A DNA stretch of 37,599 bases from the NCBI GenBank assembly GCA_964452635.1, contig CAYVMP010000006.1:1-37599 (forward strand), written 5' to 3'. This document shows positions 3,197 through 28,575 of the stretch, in pieces. The stretch is from an uncultured Candidatus Saccharibacteria bacterium (lineage in GTDB: Bacteria; Patescibacteriota; Minisyncoccia; Phycocordibacterales; DATDWN01). The notes below the pieces were generated by a model. That model was given only the letters and a program-made list of their open reading frames with translations. It did not search any database and had not been told where the DNA came from. The number at the start of each line of letters is the position of its first letter. The first letter of the stretch is position 1. The translations under genes and the position numbers were made by a program.

Positions 3197-3727
3197 ATGG
3201 ATTTCATATCACATGGACTATACGGAGGGGTGGCGTTTGGGAGAGAGAACAGAAAGATGTTTTGGTGGGCTTTTTTCTTTGGGATGATGCCAGATATTTT
3301 GGTATTCGGACCGTTTTTCGTACAGCGAATTGTTTCTGCTCTATTTGGACGAGGAGGAGGAAGTTTCCTCGGGAGACCAGAGATGATGTCTATTCCACAG
3401 TATGTGTATGAGGGGTACAACATCACTCATTCTCTCATTGTGTTTCTTTTAGTATTTGGTTTGCTCTGGCTTGTGTTTCGTCGACCAGTGTACGTGGTGC
3501 TCGGATGGCCACTCCACATTCTCACGGATTTATTTACACATTCTACTGAGTTTTTCCCCACACCTATTTTCTGGCCACTGTCGAATTTTCATATAAATGG
3601 TATTCCATGGTCACATCCTATTATTTTCATACCAAATGTGATTTTGCTTATCATTCTGTACACGTATTTTTTCGTCATACGCCCACGTCAGAGAAAGCGA
3701 ATTGAATGGAAAGGGGAGGAAAAGTAA
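3197..3727 (+). CDS. Putative membrane-bound metal-dependent hydrolase (YdjM/DUF457-like), multi-pass membrane protein
   Basis: The protein is 176 aa and hydrophobic, with His-rich motifs (HGLYGG, HSLIV, HILTDLFTHS). An extended −10-like sequence, TGaTACAAT, lies upstream at 3181-3189. Confidence 0.5.
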   Translation: MDFISHGLYGGVAFGRENRKMFWWAFFFGMMPDILVFGPFFVQRIVSALFGRGGGSFLGRPEMMSIPQYVYEGYNITHSLIVFLLVFGLLWLVFRRPVYVVLGWPLHILTDLFTHSTEFFPTPIFWPLSNFHINGIPWSHPIIFIPNVILLIILYTYFFVIRPRQRKRIEWKGEEK

Positions 3728-21497: not shown

Positions 21498-21526
21498 TTG
21501 ACAAAAAATTGAAAGGGTGCTACTAT
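21498..21526 (+). promoter_or_regulatory. Strong sigma70-type promoter: −35 TTGACA (21498-21503), 17-nt spacer, −10 TACTAT (21521-21526)
   Basis: Consensus −35 with ideal spacing; it drives the GC-rich noncoding segment downstream. Confidence 0.6.
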
Positions 21527-21534
21527 ATACCCAT

Positions 21535-21740
21535 AATGATCTTTCAAAATTTTTCGTTCGGCGTACGAACTACGCCACGCACAGGCTTACCCGGTCACCT
21601 GACCGGGGCCCACTAGGGGCTTAAACTAGCAACTTGTCTCGCGCAAGCTCGAGATCGCCAACATGGCCCGAATCGCCATGCTGGCAGCGGATCCCGAGTC
21701 TTGTAGAGACAAAGAGGGCAGGAGAAATCCTGCCCTTTTC
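21535..21740 (+). ncRNA. Unidentified ~200-nt GC-rich structured ncRNA with its own promoter and intrinsic terminator (gggcagg agaaat cctgccc TTTT, 21714-21740). The ORFs called here on both strands are probably spurious
   Basis: Multiple stable hairpins are visible: cccggtc-acct-gaccggg at 21590-21607, catggc-ccgaatc-gccatg at 21662-21680, and ggcgta/tacgcc. It is 57% GC in a 42% GC genome, with no credible coding potential. Confidence 0.5.
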
Positions 21741-21785
21741 CATATATAAATTTACAATTTTTTCCTTTTACAAAAAGGGTATCTG

Positions 21786-21794
21786 TGGTATCAT
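21786..21794 (+). promoter_or_regulatory. Extended −10 promoter (TGgTATCAT) upstream of the uvrA leader
   Basis: A TGn + TATCAT element; the same TATCAT hexamer is used at 26755 and 27044. Confidence 0.4.
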
Positions 21795-21860
21795 AATGCT
21801 CACTATATATGCAGTACGCCCGTCCGCGGGTCTGTTTGTGTATGTGTACGTTATGTAGAC

Positions 21861-22051
21861 AGTTTTCAAAATTCGTCGAGTGCACTTACTGTTCTGGCAC
21901 ATTGCGCAGTCAATTAGAAAACAACTGTGGGCGAGTGATGGGAACACGAGATCCGCATCTTGTTTTCTTGATTGGCGAGCGTGAGGAAAATTTCTAGCAA
22001 GAAATTATTCCGGTGACAGAACAGTAAGTGTCGAGACAAATTTTGAAAACT
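21861..22051 (+). promoter_or_regulatory. Long-range inverted repeat in the uvrA 5' leader. The arms agttttcaaaatt...cacttactgttctg (21861-21896) and cagaacagtaagtg...aattttgaaaact (22017-22051) enclose ~120 nt and end 12 nt before the uvrA ATG
   Basis: The 13-bp and 14-bp perfectly complementary segments are separated by a 9-nt mismatch loop in each arm. Confidence 0.5.
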
Positions 22052-22062
22052 ATCCAATTTTT

Positions 22063-24693
22063 ATGAAACCCAACCCAAAACAAAACGAACTCATTATCGT
22101 CAAAGGAGCACGAACACACAACCTTAAAAACATTACGGTTGAAATGCCTCGCAATAAAATGATTGTCTTTACTGGTCTCTCGGGTTCCGGCAAATCATCA
22201 CTTGCATTCGATACGATATTTGCAGAAGGTCAGCGTCGATACGTGGAGTCACTTTCGTCCTATGCGCGACAATTTCTCCGACAGATGCAAAAGCCGGATG
22301 TAGATGAAATCGTCGGACTCTCACCAGCTATCTCTATTGATCAGAAATCTCGTTCGAACAACCCACGTTCGACTGTGGCGACGATTACAGAAATCTACGA
22401 CTACCTCCGTATTCTCTACGCACGTATCGGTCATCCACACTGTCTCGTGTGTGGGAGAGAAATCACTAAACTTTCAAACGAAGAAATTAAAAACTTTATT
22501 CTCGGGAAAATCAGTGAGCAGACCAAGCTCATGAAGAAATCAGAAAAGAAAATCCCATTTCCAATGTATGTTGAACTGTTTGCTCCTGTTGTCCGTGGTC
22601 GCAAGGGTGAGTACTATCAACTCCTCTATGATTTACTCGGCAAGGGATACACACATGTTCTCATTGATGGTGAGCGAAAATCTCTTCGAGAGAGAGTTGA
22701 ACTTTCAAAGACGAAACGACACACAATAGATGTGCTCGTGGACAGTCTCTCGCTTTCTGATTTTACAACTGATATGAAAAGTGCTGAGGAGCGTTTGGCG
22801 GAAAGTCTCGAAAAAGCACTCAATGAGTCAGATGGTCAGGTGAAAATACTATTTCGAGATATTGGACGTGAATCTGAAAAAGAATACAAACCAGAAGAAT
22901 TTTTCATGTCTTCAAAACTTTCATGTCCGCACGATGGGTACTCATATCCAGAGGTTGAGCCACGGTTATTTTCATTTAACTCTCCATACGGAGCGTGTTC
23001 AGAGTGTAATGGTTTAGGAACACGGCATTTCTTTGGCAATGAAGTCTGTCCTAAATGTAAGGGTGCACGACTTCGTGAGGAGGCCCTCCATGTGCTCATC
23101 GGGGGGAAGAATATCGTTGATCTTACTGCATCATCTATCAAGGATGCACATACATTTTTCGATACACTCAAACTAACAGACCGTGAGAAAAATATTTCCA
23201 AAGTTGTCATGCGAGAAATTGAATCTCGACTTCTCTTTATGATAAATGTCGGTATTGAGTACCTCTCACTCTCGCGACGTGCACACACGCTCTCTGGTGG
23301 TGAGGCACAGCGTATTCGACTTGCAAGCCAGCTCGGATCAGGACTGGTTGGTGCACTCTATGTACTCGATGAACCGACGATTGGACTGCACTCACGAGAC
23401 AATGATCGTCTCATTCAGACACTCATTGATTTGAAAAATCTTGGTAACACTATTATCGTTGTCGAACACGATGAGGATACTATTTTTGCATCTGACTATA
23501 TTGTTGATATTGGTCCGGGTGCTGGTCGGCACGGTGGGGATGTTGTCGTGTCTGGATACCTCGATGAACTTTTGACTGCAAAGAAAAACACATCGGGTTC
23601 GCTGACACTCGACTATTTGCGAGGGGATAAAATAGTAGAACTTCCTGAGAAAAGACGTGATACACCAAAAGGTGAGTTGCAGATTCGTGGTGGAAATATT
23701 TTTAATATTAAAAATATGAACGTTGATATTCCACTTGGACGACTCATTGTGGTGACGGGAGTGTCCGGTTCAGGCAAATCATCCTTTGTGTATGAGATTT
23801 TAAATAAAAATTTGCAGGCTCGGTTTGAGCGCAAGTATCGGAGTGCAGAAATATACAACTGCAAAAGCTTTACTGGTACGGAATATCTTGGTCGCTCTAT
23901 TTTGATTGATCAGAGTCCTATTGGACGTACTCCACGAAGTAACCCTGCGACATACACTGGTAGTTGGTCGTTCATACGGGATCTCTTTGCAGAGACATCA
24001 GAAGCACGTGCTCGCGGATGGAAGGCAAATAGATTTTCTTTCAATGTGAAGGGGGGACGATGCGAGACGTGTCAAGGTAACGGCATGATTGAGGTGGAAA
24101 TGCATTTCCTTCCGACAGTATATGTACCGTGTGATGTGTGTAAGGGCAAGCGGTTTATGAAAGAGACACTCGAAGTACAGTACAAAAAGAAAAATATCTA
24201 CGATATTTTGAAAATGACTGTTGAGGAGGCACTTACATTTTTCAATGATATTCCTACAATCTACGACAGACTCAAAACACTTGATGAGGTTGGGCTTGGC
24301 TACCTCGAACTCGGACAGTCTGCAACGACGCTCTCCGGTGGTGAGGCACAGCGTGTAAAGATTTCATCCGAGTTGTACCGACCACATTTACAGAAAACAA
24401 TGTATCTGCTCGACGAACCGACAATCGGTTTGCACTACGAAGATGTGAAGAAACTAATTGAGATTGTTCAGAAATTAGTAGACAAGGGAAACACAGTGCT
24501 CATTATTGAACACAACATGGATGTCATTAAATCTGCTGACTATCTACTCGACATTGGTCCAGAAGGTGGTGAGGGCGGGGGACAGCTTGTAGCAAAGGGA
24601 ACTCCGGAGGAGGTTGCAAATAGTGAGAAGAGTCACACAGGGAAGTATTTGAAGAAGGCGTTGAAGCAGTATAGGGCGTATAGGAAATCCTAG
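22063..24693 (+). CDS. uvrA: Excinuclease ABC subunit A
   Basis: Two ABC ATPase modules are present ([18 protein letters not shown], twice LSGGEAQR), with zinc-finger Cys clusters. Confidence 0.95.
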
Positions 24694-24997: not shown

Positions 24998-25264
24998 TTA
25001 AGCAAGTAGTTCTAAAAATTTGTTAACATCAGATATTTTTTGAAATAAAAGTTTTGGTGATGATGGGATATCTGTTCTGTCAATAGTATCCAACCATTTG
25101 TTTAATAGTATTACTGCTTCCGGATGAATTTCTTGGGTTGATCTCTGTGCGCCATCTGTCCGGCTATGGTGATTTTTGGACATATAGATTTTTTCTCCAT
25201 CCCAAGCATTCAAGACTGCGCCAGTGTACGCAGCCATTTCCTCAACCTTTTCTTTGTGTGTCAT
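24998..25264 (-). CDS. Hypothetical protein (88 aa)
   Basis: A good RBS (GGAAGGAG) lies 8 nt upstream of the ATG, and a terminator follows downstream. Confidence 0.5.
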   Translation of the reverse strand: MTHKEKVEEMAAYTGAVLNAWDGEKIYMSKNHHSRTDGAQRSTQEIHPEAVILLNKWLDTIDRTDIPSSPKLLFQKISDVNKFLELLA

Positions 25265-25299
25265 TGTTTTTCTCCTTCCAATTTGATATCATATTTGGG

Positions 25300-26619
25300 A
25301 TGAAACGTCAAGATGTTCTACAACTCATTAAGAAATTTCCAGATGCACCGGGGGTGTATTTCTTTAAACGTGGGGAGGGCTCGGGTAGTGAGATTTTGTA
25401 TATTGGAAAGGCTACATCTCTCCGTGATCGGGTGCGCAGTTATTTCTCCAAAGACATTGGTGAGGTTCGTGGTCCACTCATTACCAAAATGCTCAGTGAG
25501 TTTGGTAGAATCGAGTATACAGAGACAGACTCCGTGCTCGAAGCTCTTATTCTCGAAGCTCATCTCATCAAAAAACACCAACCTCCTGCAAATGTGATGG
25601 AGAAGGATGACAAAAGTTTCAACTTCGTTGTCATTACGAAGGAGGAATTTCCGCGGGTGCTCATTGTGCGTGGACGTGAACTCCTAGTCTCACACCTCTC
25701 ACAGAAACAGGAGGATAAACTTGGCTACGAGATTGCGTATTCATTTGGACCATTTCCAAATGGTATACAACTCAAGGAAGCACTCAAAATAGTGCGAAAG
25801 GTTTTTCCATATCGGGATGAAAAGTGTGTTCCTGCAAGAGAGCAGAAGATAAAGAAAGATCAAAAACCAAAAGCCTGTTTCAATCGTCAGATTGGACTCT
25901 GTCCGGGTGTGTGCACAGGCGAAATATCTGCACAGGAGTACGCACAGCAAATCAAAAATATCGTACTCTTTTTTGAGGGGAATAAAAAACAACTCGTGAG
26001 AGATTTGGAAAAAGAGATGAAGCGTTTTGCGAGTGATCGTCAGTTTGAACGCGCAGGTGAAATTAAACGACAGATATTTGCACTTGGGCACATACAGGAT
26101 GTGTCGCTTATCAAGGAAAATAAAAATCATCTCGCTGGTCGAGGTATTTCGGGCAGGGTAATGCGTATTGAGAGCTATGACATCGCTCACATGTCCGGGC
26201 AGAATGTGGTCGGAGTGATGACTGTAGTTGAGGATGGTGAGGTCAAAAGGAGTGACTACCGAAAATTCAAAATCAAAGATAACCCGGGGGTCAACGATAC
26301 ACGGGCACTTCGAGAAGTGCTCACACGACGGCTCGGGCATACTGAATGGCCACTGCCGACACTCATTGTCGTTGATGGAAGTACGGCACAGCGTAATGCA
26401 GTGAATAAAGTACTGCGAGAACATTTTGCCGACACTCCGGATGGAAAGGGGACGAGTATTCCCGTAGTTTCTGTGGTCAAGGATGAGCGACATCGGGCAC
26501 GAGAGATTCAGGGTGATACTGTGTGGCTCGCATATGAGAAAGACATCCTCCTTTCAAATGCAGAGGCGCATCGGTTTGCGATTGGTTTCCATTCTCGTCT
26601 TCGAGGTAAGATAAAGTAG
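25300..26619 (+). CDS. uvrC: Excinuclease ABC subunit C, short form lacking the C-terminal HhH domain. It starts at MKRQDVLQ and is divergent from the upstream − strand gene
   Basis: The GIY-YIG motif (GVYFFKRGEG...LYIGKATSLRDRV), the UvrBC-interaction region and the RNase H-like endonuclease domain (ESYDIAHMSG) are all present. Confidence 0.9.
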   Translation: MKRQDVLQLIKKFPDAPGVYFFKRGEGSGSEILYIGKATSLRDRVRSYFSKDIGEVRGPLITKMLSEFGRIEYTETDSVLEALILEAHLIKKHQPPANVMEKDDKSFNFVVITKEEFPRVLIVRGRELLVSHLSQKQEDKLGYEIAYSFGPFPNGIQLKEALKIVRKVFPYRDEKCVPAREQKIKKDQKPKACFNRQIGLCPGVCTGEISAQEYAQQIKNIVLFFEGNKKQLVRDLEKEMKRFASDRQFERAGEIKRQIFALGHIQDVSLIKENKNHLAGRGISGRVMRIESYDIAHMSGQNVVGVMTVVEDGEVKRSDYRKFKIKDNPGVNDTRALREVLTRRLGHTEWPLPTLIVVDGSTAQRNAVNKVLREHFADTPDGKGTSIPVVSVVKDERHRAREIQGDTVWLAYEKDILLSNAEAHRFAIGFHSRLRGKIK

Positions 26620-26731
26620 ATTTTTCAAATACTCATAAACAACTCATTTTTTTGAGAATTCTAAAAAATGTTGAAAAATAAAGGCTTTTTGAAATTCATT
26701 CTGATGATTTTGATTTTTCCCTGAAAATTAG

Positions 26732-26760
26732 TTGACAGAAAATACTGGGTGTGCTATCAT
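26732..26760 (+). promoter_or_regulatory. Promoter: −35 TTGACA (26732-26737), 17-nt spacer, −10 TATCAT (26755-26760)
   Basis: Consensus −35 with ideal spacing. Confidence 0.6.
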
Positions 26761-26766
26761 TATTTC

Positions 26767-27010
26767 CAGTGAGCCTCTGCAGGGGACGGTACCAATGTCC
26801 TGCCATTGGTACTGAAGAACAAACAAAAGCAGGTTTGCCGGCTGATCCTGAAGGAATTCCAAGTCTTCTTTTGGGGCATATAAATGTCGGTAATAATAAT
26901 GAGCTTGGGACAAGTGGGTTGCGTCCAAAACGGGGCGCCCAAATGGCGTCAGTGACCCACGGGGTCGGGTAAGTATCGAGTAAATCTCGAAAACTGCCCG
27001 GCCCTTTTTC
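26767..27010 (+). ncRNA. Unidentified ~240-nt structured ncRNA bounded by its own promoter and an intrinsic terminator (ggggtcggg ... cccggccc TTTTT, 26961-27010). It is separate from proS, which has its own promoter after the terminator
   Basis: A 9-bp hairpin, gtaccaatg-tcctgc-cattggtac, lies at 26790-26813. The GGAATTCC palindrome and a GC-rich 3' domain are also present. Overlapping ORFs have no RBS. Confidence 0.45.
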
Positions 27011-27020
27011 ATATCAATTT

Positions 27021-27049
27021 TTGACCGACCATCATTTTTCCTATATCAT
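27021..27049 (+). promoter_or_regulatory. proS promoter: −35 TTGACC, 17-nt spacer, −10 TATCAT (27044-27049). The ATG at 27056 lies ~7 nt downstream, so the mRNA is leaderless or nearly so
   Basis: Based on the spacing of the −10 element to the start codon; no Shine-Dalgarno sequence is present. Confidence 0.5.
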
Positions 27050-27055
27050 GTGGGT

Positions 27056-28309
27056 ATGCGACAATCCCATCTATTTACAAAAACACGCAAGGAAGTGCCT
27101 GCAGATGAGTCAAGTAAAAATGCTCAACTTCTCATCAAGGCAGGCTTTATACATAAAGAAATGGCAGGAGTGTATTCTCTTCTACCACTTGGGTTCACAG
27201 TAGTCCAAAAAATTAAAAAAATCATTGCTGATGAAATGGAAGCACTCGGCTCTCAGGAGATTATCATGTCTACACTTCAGAGTAAGGAAGTGTGGGAGAA
27301 AACCGATCGATGGAGTGATGATAAAGTGGATGTGTGGTTTAAATCGAAATTGAAAAATGACACCGAAGTTGGTTTCGGATGGTCGCATGAGGAGCCGATT
27401 ACCTCGATGATGACATCACACATTGCAAGCTACCACGACCTTCCACGTGTCGTGCATCAATTCCAAAACAAACTTCGCAACGAAACACGTGCGAAGAGTG
27501 GCATCATGCGATGTCGAGAGTTTGTCATGAAGGATATGTACTCCTACTCACAGGATGAAGCACAGCACATGGATTTCTATACAAAAGCCACTCAGGCATA
27601 TCTCACGGTGTTCAAACGTGTCGGTCTTGGAGATATTACATTTGTAACATCTGCATCGGGTGGAGTGTTTACTGATAAATTTAGTCACGAATTTCAGACG
27701 CTCTGCGAGGCTGGTGAAGACAATATATATGTACACACAGACGGTGTGATTGCTCTTAACGAGGAAATTTTTAATGATGAAACTCTCTCAAAAATGGGAA
27801 TGCAGAAATCTGATTTTGAAATGAAGAAAGCGGCTGAAGTTGGAAATATTTTTACATTTGGAACGAAAAAGTGTCAGGAGCTTGATCTCTACTATACAAA
27901 TGAGGCGGGTGAGAAAACCCCAGTATTTCTGGGCTCCTATGGTATTGGTGTCACTCGTCTCATGGGAGTGATTGCAGAAGTGTGTTCGGATGAAAAGGGG
28001 TTGATGTGGCCAACAGAGGTCGCTCCATTCGCTGTGCATCTTGTTCGTCTTGGAAATTCACCGGAGACACTCGCTGAGGCGGATGCACTGTATGCGAGTC
28101 TCCGTAAACAATCAATTGAAGTGCTCTATGACGATCGTGATATGCGACCAGGGGAAAAGTTTGCTGACGCGGATCTCATCGGTATCCCGATTCGTCTCGT
28201 TGTGTCTGACAAAACAGTCGCACAGAATAAAGTCGAGATGAAATACCGATCGAGTACCGAGTCCGAGTTGGTGAGTGTAGAGGAGGTGATGAAGGTGGTA
28301 ATAAATTAA
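27056..28309 (+). CDS. proS: Proline--tRNA ligase, bacterial type lacking the INS editing domain
   Basis: MRQSHLF...EVPADE...GVYSLLPLGF is the conserved N-terminus. The class II motifs are present and the length of 417 aa means no insertion domain. Confidence 0.9.
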   Translation: MRQSHLFTKTRKEVPADESSKNAQLLIKAGFIHKEMAGVYSLLPLGFTVVQKIKKIIADEMEALGSQEIIMSTLQSKEVWEKTDRWSDDKVDVWFKSKLKNDTEVGFGWSHEEPITSMMTSHIASYHDLPRVVHQFQNKLRNETRAKSGIMRCREFVMKDMYSYSQDEAQHMDFYTKATQAYLTVFKRVGLGDITFVTSASGGVFTDKFSHEFQTLCEAGEDNIYVHTDGVIALNEEIFNDETLSKMGMQKSDFEMKKAAEVGNIFTFGTKKCQELDLYYTNEAGEKTPVFLGSYGIGVTRLMGVIAEVCSDEKGLMWPTEVAPFAVHLVRLGNSPETLAEADALYASLRKQSIEVLYDDRDMRPGEKFADADLIGIPIRLVVSDKTVAQNKVEMKYRSSTESELVSVEEVMKVVIN

Positions 28310-28575
28310 TTTCTAAAATCCTCCACCACAGTGGAATTTTCAGAGACCCCGGAGGTAATTAGGAAACAACGACGAACGAGAAGAAGCGCGAAGCACTGTT
28401 TGACGAAGTCGTACTCGACGAGGAGTTTGCGAAAGCGCTCTGGAGTGAGGACGATTGTTTCCTTGATTACCGAGGAAGAGCAATTCGTGACCACACGAAT
28501 ATGCGTGCTCTGAAAATAACACTGTGATGGAGGATCTGTAATACGGTTTTGTAGTGTGTGTTAATATATCAAATA

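Follow-up and report, generated by a model that had tools for sequence, protein, structure and literature searches.

T-box leaders (RF00230) are tRNA-sensing attenuators of aminoacyl-tRNA synthetase genes, and they are one point of reference for a folded RNA with a terminator directly upstream of such a gene. Other described RNAs provide further points of reference. 6S RNA is rod-like, its ends paired and its centre open in a bubble; the raiA motif and OLE RNA are orphan structured non-coding RNA classes that emerged from comparative genomics, with hundreds of sequences each; SreA and SreB of Listeria and EutX of Enterococcus are small RNAs derived from riboswitches, which undergo constitutive termination and act in trans. 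For Patescibacteria (CPR), our reading of the literature turned up no description of a small regulatory or structured RNA, and nothing relevant on T-box regulation or leaderless translation.

The locus considered here occupies the 437-nt spacer between uvrC and proS in a stretch of 37,599 nucleotides, all of which was analysed and which is called the window below. An earlier, sequence-only reading had proposed a promoter-to-terminator RNA of ~240 nt at 26767-27010, and the sequence features belonging to that proposal are all present at those positions. The predicted RNA falls into no described family, but its kind appears familiar: that of a lineage-restricted bacterial small-RNA gene. We hold it to be rather probable that the gene is independent and selectively maintained, and that its product acts in trans as a folded particle; transcription, efficient termination, action in trans and action as a particle are what we infer from promoter, fold and conservation. 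So far the RNA is a lead rather than a discovery, with two sequences known. It is nonetheless a candidate of well-defined extent, in which a strong promoter goes with a conserved fold and clear purifying selection, and it comes from an uncultivated phylum of reduced genomes.

Position and promoter of the RNA gene

The genes around the spacer, assigned from the list of open reading frames and from Pfam, all lie on the plus strand: uvrA (22063-24693), uvrC (25138-26619), then proS (27056-28309), with mreB, mreC and PBP2 3' of it. The RNA gene has the same orientation. Its predicted promoter, TTGACA-17-TATCAT, is found at 26732-26760 (-35 at 26732-26737; -10 at 26755-26760) as the sequence-only reading had described it, and an extended -10 TG at 26752-26753 can be added to that description. 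Eleven of the 12 positions match the sigma-70 consensus, and our own scan ranks this promoter as the top sigma-70 match of the entire 37.6-kb window. It is kept, as TTGACA-17-TATTAT, in the only homologous locus found (L081, introduced below). Judged from the position of the -10, transcription would start at about 26767-26769 and yield a non-coding RNA of ~240 nt (26767-27010, plus strand), for which fold, pairing kept in L081 and lack of a conserved ORF are the evidence.

Immediately 5' of the promoter is an AT-rich block of 109 nt (26623-26731, plus strand), which is 93% identical to its counterpart in L081 and so is more conserved than the 5' domain of the RNA itself. A similar motif (AATTCTAAAAAA..T.TTGA) is found also 5' of another promoter of the window, at 21498, and in two related loci (L087 and L090). 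The block may be an UP element, or a site for a regulator shared by promoters of non-coding RNAs.

Fold of the RNA

The 244-nt plus-strand sequence folds with -91 kcal/mol (z = -3.7; one of 200 shuffled sequences was as stable). For the reverse complement the z-score is -1.3; the fold includes 13 G-U pairs, which on the opposite strand become A-C mismatches. Five hairpins, P0 to P4, are common to the window RNA and L081, all given here on the plus strand. P0 (26774-26785) is a 4-bp hairpin, CCUC/GGGG, with a UGCA loop, in which one U-G pair has become U-A in L081. P1 (26788-26813) is a 10-bp hairpin with the loop UCCUGC (UCCUGY across both copies), extended to 11 bp (26787-26814) in the single-sequence fold; it is the gtaccaatg/cattggtac hairpin that had been noticed before, at 9 bp a little shorter than the 10-11 bp found here. 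P2 (26835-26893) is long, has a 7-nt bulge and ends in the tip GGAAUUCC with the loop UUCCAAGUC; the palindrome reported earlier, GGAATTCC, is at 26853-26860, within this tip. P3 (26914-26960) consists of a 9-bp stem around a 6-bp hairpin with a CAAAU loop, and belongs to a 3' domain that is 95% identical between the two copies. P4 (26961-27009) is an intrinsic terminator: an 11-bp GC-rich base encloses an inner hairpin (5 bp, loop UAAAU), and the U-tract follows. The GC-rich 3' terminator of the earlier description is thus borne out, with the hairpin at 26961-27005 and the UUUUU at 27005-27009.

Two further pairings between loops and linkers can be drawn. Candidate pseudoknot PK1 (26799-26833, plus strand) would join CCUGC of the P1 loop (26799-26803) to GCAGG (26829-26833), 25 nt further 3', which forms a conserved island in an otherwise variable linker; the pairing is kept in L081 as CCUGU/GCAGG, and the geometry would be compatible with an H-type pseudoknot. 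Candidate PK2 (26858-26909, plus strand) would join UCCAAG of the P2 loop (26858-26863) to CUUGGG (26904-26909), which in L081 reads UCCAAG/CUUGGA and gives six Watson-Crick pairs. Complementarity of this extent has a chance probability of roughly 0.2 for each, hence their standing as candidates. Together the two would account for the conservation of the P1 and P2 loops.

Conservation and selection

The comparison rests on L081, a contig of 2.7 kb from the JGI metagenome 3300045256, with a ProRS that shares 96% identity with the window's; it carries the sole homologue of the RNA found. All 72 base pairs are kept there: 144 of 144 cells are paired, and sliding the partners by 1-3 columns lowers this to 37-49%. 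Paired columns contain 15 substitutions, which make up three double compensatory and nine one-sided compatible changes; none is disruptive. In P1 one G-C pair has become A-U, a double compensatory change, and two further changes are one-sided and compatible; P2 has one double compensatory change (C-G to U-A) and four one-sided compatible ones; P4, most of which is invariant, has one double compensatory change, again G-C to A-U. P3 does not differ between the two copies, so its pairing draws no support from covariation. With only two copies that support is thin throughout, as the shuffle control makes plain (61 of 500); by our own estimate, nine single changes out of nine that keep pairing have a probability of about 0.002 or less.

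Rates of change at the same locus give the scale. The RNA is 75% identical to L081 in its 5' domain and 95% in its 3' domain, while the four-fold degenerate sites of proS are 70% identical, the unconstrained spacer between proS and mreB is 48-54% identical, and the proS promoter is 98% identical. The highly conserved block (95-98%) stretches unbroken from P3 across the terminator and into the proS promoter. Given a 3' domain at 95% against neutral sites at about 70%, and stem substitutions that without exception keep pairing, the comparison points clearly to purifying selection on the RNA.

Coding potential

Could the transcript encode a small protein instead? Two reading frames might do so, and both exist: a 73-aa ORF on the plus strand, with GUG at 26769 as a possible leaderless start, and a 94-aa ORF on the minus strand (26728-27012), which spans the whole RNA and is on record as protein P0121 of the same contig. 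We find this hardly credible. The GUG is GCG in L081, and all six frames over the RNA are broken by stops or indels in the window copy or in L081; the ORFs over the RNA have no Pfam match; and a search of 5.8 billion proteins, aimed also at homologous loci miscalled as genes, returned nothing for the 94-aa ORF beyond the contig's own entry. Lacking homologues and being broken in L081, the 94-aa ORF is almost certainly a miscall.

A separate promoter for proS

The sequence-only reading had given proS a promoter of its own after the terminator and had called the gene probably leaderless; both statements gain from the comparison with relatives. The promoter, TTGACC-17-TATCAT (27021-27049, plus strand; -35 at 27021-27026, -10 at 27044-27049), begins 11 nt past the U-tract of the RNA, and like the structure and promoter of the RNA it is kept in L081. 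Its -10 is 6 nt from the ATG at 27056. From this ATG the gene (27056-28309, plus strand) reads as a compact ProRS of 417 aa with the canonical N-terminus MRQSHLF... and the Pfam domains tRNA-synt_2b and HGTP_anticodon; homologues measure 415-417 aa. The GTG at 27050, which the ORF finder had taken as the start, was rejected, since the ATG fits both the N-terminus and the length of the homologues. No Shine-Dalgarno sequence precedes proS. This is informative because genes led by one occur elsewhere in the window: GGAGG is found before 1285, 15143 and 18015. The leaderless layout, a -10 followed after about 6 nt by ATG, is seen in the window at 3197 and at proS.

Relatives show the same layout. 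Among L001-L092, 88 non-redundant proS loci of relatives were examined over the 45 nt that precede the ATG. In 48 of these 88 a TANNNT hexamer has its end 6-9 nt upstream of the ATG, against about 3 for each other offset, and the closest relatives have the -35 element TTTTGACC in common, often with the T-tract of a terminator directly 5' of it. Leaderless or near-leaderless proS is, on this evidence from sequence, apparently widespread in these Patescibacteria. In a smaller set of 13 loci, many of which carry the Saccharibacteria label, proS is preceded by a GGAG-type Shine-Dalgarno sequence instead. The spacer before proS is short in most relatives and holds no leader, so a leader is not a general feature of this gene.

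Comparison with T-box leaders and other RNA families

Rfam, which had been suggested earlier as a check (T-box, 6S, SRP and others), matched no family to the RNA. That holds for the entire window at the gathering threshold and for 26550-27150 at E<=10, where only snoRNA-type noise appears, with no T-box, 6S, SRP, RNase P, tmRNA or riboswitch. With ARAGORN, neither the window nor the close relatives yielded a tRNA or tmRNA. Housekeeping RNAs (6S, SRP, RNase P, tmRNA) were rejected on the strength of these searches and because the fold is unlike that of 6S: in place of a rod there is a string of separate hairpins with unpaired ends.

For the T-box, specific parts were sought. The core GGGUGGNACCGCG is absent from 26767-27010 even with up to 3 mismatches. 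P1, 10-11 bp long without interruption and closed by a terminal loop of 6 nt, has no specifier loop, K-turn or distal platform. Neither folds of successive prefixes of the growing transcript nor suboptimal folds of the 3' domain contain an antiterminator; P3 forms and then P4, and the sole competitor of the terminator that could be drawn by hand has 6 bp and a 3-nt loop. The P1 loop does contain the proline codon CCU. This is weak evidence for a T-box, because some proline codon will occur in any 6-nt loop about one time in four and because PK1 accounts for the same bases (5 of the 6 loop bases can pair with GCAGG). The RNA also shares 8 nt, GGGGUCGG, with E. coli tRNA-Pro; the identity was judged coincidental, the rest having no tRNA-like fold and ARAGORN being negative. 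With no Rfam match, T-box sequence, Stem I or antiterminator, and with a promoter placed before proS, a T-box leader was rejected. The resemblance had been called superficial from the outset, and with no family match, no antiterminator and a separate proS promoter it has proved so. An RNA that looks like a T-box in front of a synthetase gene need not be one, and a separately promoted, apparently leaderless proS recurs widely among the relatives that were compared.

RNAs in the same position in relatives

By its best ProRS relatives, MAGs named Parcubacteria or Paceibacteria, the window comes from a Patescibacteria contig of Parcubacteria- or Paceibacteria-like type. The lineage is thinly sampled: beyond L081, no ProRS comes closer than 80% identity. 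When the RNA was compared by nhmmer and blastn with the regions upstream of proS in 80-91 related loci, L081 alone was recovered. A covariance model, R1, built from the window RNA and L081, found nothing further, whether run over 523 kb with the default filters or, unfiltered, on 13 of the closest loci. No homologue came from viral, phage and plasmid collections, and a metagenome pattern scan with P3 anchors gave 0 matches. Several apparent hits were rejected: a 10-mer common to the RNA and L090 (CAAGTGGGTT) is at chance level; an R1 match in L090 (E = 0.004, a rough value) is on the minus strand, hence the wrong one, and spans the proS start; and the one match of a metagenome scan with the two loop sequences, L086, is GC-rich coding DNA and a chance match. 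Rfam found only distant tRNAs in 24 related loci, and ARAGORN found only tRNA-Thr genes ~2 kb upstream, in four more distant loci.

The position itself is often filled. Lineages with 75-80% identical ProRS often have spacers of 390-570 nt between rseP and the leaderless proS promoter, and in five loci the slot holds an RNA with a TTGACA-type promoter and a terminator: L083 (2672-2934, fold z -6.0), L087 (1146-1467, z -2.3), L088 (1011-1241, z -2.6, with a second promoter-to-terminator unit at 1280-1450), L090 (1038-1450, z -4.8) and L082 (2844-2954, z -4.2). These RNAs have no detectable homology to the window RNA or to each other, and no Rfam match; what they have in common with the window is limited to AT-rich stretches upstream of promoters and to the proS promoter. 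Two other loci, L092 and L005, have almost no spacer before proS. An RNA is kept beside proS both where rseP lies upstream and where uvrC does, and the slot looks like a hot spot for non-coding RNA genes or a site of very fast RNA turnover. Unrelated structured RNAs in one and the same slot make a small puzzle of non-coding RNA turnover. The short RNA of L082 carries, at about 2895-2905, AATTAGTTGAC, which is identical to the window sequence around the -35 of the small-RNA promoter (AATTAGTTGACA) and has no -10 after it; this may be the remnant of a lost promoter.

Other elements of the window

Three further features of the window deserve record. Another promoter-to-terminator RNA, presumably the first of the two counted by the sequence-only reading, lies at 21498-21745 (plus strand), with the promoter TTGACA-17-TACTAT and an extended -10 TG, a length of about 210 nt, the terminator GGGCAGGAGAAAUCCUGCCC-UUUU, a very strong fold z of -8.1 and no Rfam match. 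Close behind it, in 21767-22062 (plus strand), a third strong promoter, TTTACA-16-TATCAT with TG, stands about 270 nt 5' of the uvrA ATG (22063); the region is either a long structured uvrA leader or another small RNA. The spacer between proS and mreB (28309-28557) contains a long hairpin at ~28349-28476 (z = -3.7), whose arms UUAGGAAACAACGACGAA and GAGGACGAUUGUUUCCUUGA are conserved in L081, identity falling to ~50% in the spacer on either side; it is perhaps an mreB leader, perhaps a processing element.

Competing explanations

One way to understand the locus is to make the RNA a cis regulator of proS, either an atypical T-box or riboswitch-like attenuator or a source of read-through that occludes the leaderless promoter or interferes with it. 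We regard this as unlikely. The RNA does lie directly 5' of an aminoacyl-tRNA synthetase gene, with a proline codon in its P1 loop; the 95-98% block does continue from P3-P4 into the proS promoter; and structured RNAs do occupy the slot in related lineages behind either rseP or uvrC. Yet no T-box or riboswitch family appears at E<=10 and no T-box sequence within 3 mismatches; P1 is simply a hairpin, whose CCU finds a better explanation in PK1; no fold competes with the terminator; a read-through mRNA would come without a Shine-Dalgarno sequence, whereas the leaderless promoter is widely conserved; and most relatives have a short spacer and no leader at all. A related idea, more of a long shot, is that the slot holds a new kind of promoter-proximal RNA that tunes ProRS, for example by read-through that occludes the promoter in response to tRNA-Pro charging or to proline, the sensor being replaced across lineages and the architecture kept. 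Were this so, the slot would hold a fast-evolving, compactly folded RNA, here with five helices and two candidate pseudoknots, and its ultra-conserved 3' domain and terminator would be joined to the proS promoter.

A second perspective supposes that what matters is the boundary between transcription units: the module would close the uvrA-uvrC unit, insulate the proS promoter and give it a T-rich UP region, and the RNA would be functionless. It is true that uvrC itself, with its end at 26619, lacks a convincing terminator, and that in many relatives a terminator T-tract abuts the proS -35 TTTTGACC. For such a purpose P4 alone would suffice, however, and this perspective, which we find quite unlikely, leaves unexplained the dedicated near-consensus promoter kept in L081, the compensatory upkeep of P1 and P2 and the 95% identity of P3. 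The same facts weigh on the fallback offered by the sequence-only reading, a decoupled, relic leader, and with it on any account of the RNA as a decaying leader or gene or a functionless transcript. An identity of 75-95% (four-fold sites: 70%; free spacer: ~50%), 15 of 15 stem substitutions that keep pairing and the retention of both promoter elements run counter to decay; that only two sequences are known, and that slot RNAs turn over rapidly among relatives, speaks for it, and on balance we think it very unlikely.

We return to the reading that we prefer, an independent small RNA, which had also been the first choice of the sequence-only reading and which agrees with what was found: an own promoter and terminator, no T-box, no antiterminator and a conserved proS promoter. 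On this account, a sigma-70-type promoter with its extended -10 and the AT-rich block upstream would drive a non-coding transcript of ~240 nt; this would fold co-transcriptionally into P0-P4, possibly tied by the two loop-linker pseudoknots, and would end at its own intrinsic terminator (P4 and U5). The second promoter would then start proS at or next to the AUG, and ProRS expression would be independent of the RNA terminator because proS starts from a promoter of its own. The RNA itself may act as a protein-binding or scaffold particle, conceivably one that binds a ligand. A folded particle seems likelier than an antisense seed, because loops, pseudoknot partners and P3-P4 are conserved and the linker otherwise drifts; a crude duplex-energy scan for targets among the 5' regions of the window did no better than shuffled controls. 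The preferred reading cannot be the whole story if the unbroken 95-98% block and the recurrence of RNAs in the slot mean what they hint at, a functional tie to proS, for which a purely independent RNA acting in trans offers no explanation.

Relation to known systems

The window RNA is like a T-box leader in being a structured RNA of ~240 nt located 5' of an aminoacyl-tRNA synthetase gene, with a terminator and with the cognate CCU in a loop. It differs in giving no match to the covariance model and in having no T-box sequence, UGGN bulge, Stem I or antiterminator; moreover, a conserved promoter parts it from a gene that is, in all likelihood, leaderless. With the raiA motif and OLE RNA it has in common a fold of several helices, parts of which are strongly conserved, and the candidate pseudoknots may be added to this; it matches neither in sequence or structure (by Rfam), and its two sequences stand against hundreds. 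No known aptamer was recognised in it by Rfam, which sets it apart from SreA, SreB and EutX, but like them it would resemble a leader in being folded and in ending at a terminator, and expression of the downstream gene would not need it. Compared with typical small RNAs that pair through a seed, it is longer and more elaborately folded, and its first single-stranded linker, pseudoknot partners aside, is among its least conserved parts. In organization it resembles trans-encoded small-RNA genes: like these it is intergenic and non-coding, has its own promoter, ends in a terminator hairpin with a U-tract and has a narrow phylogenetic range.
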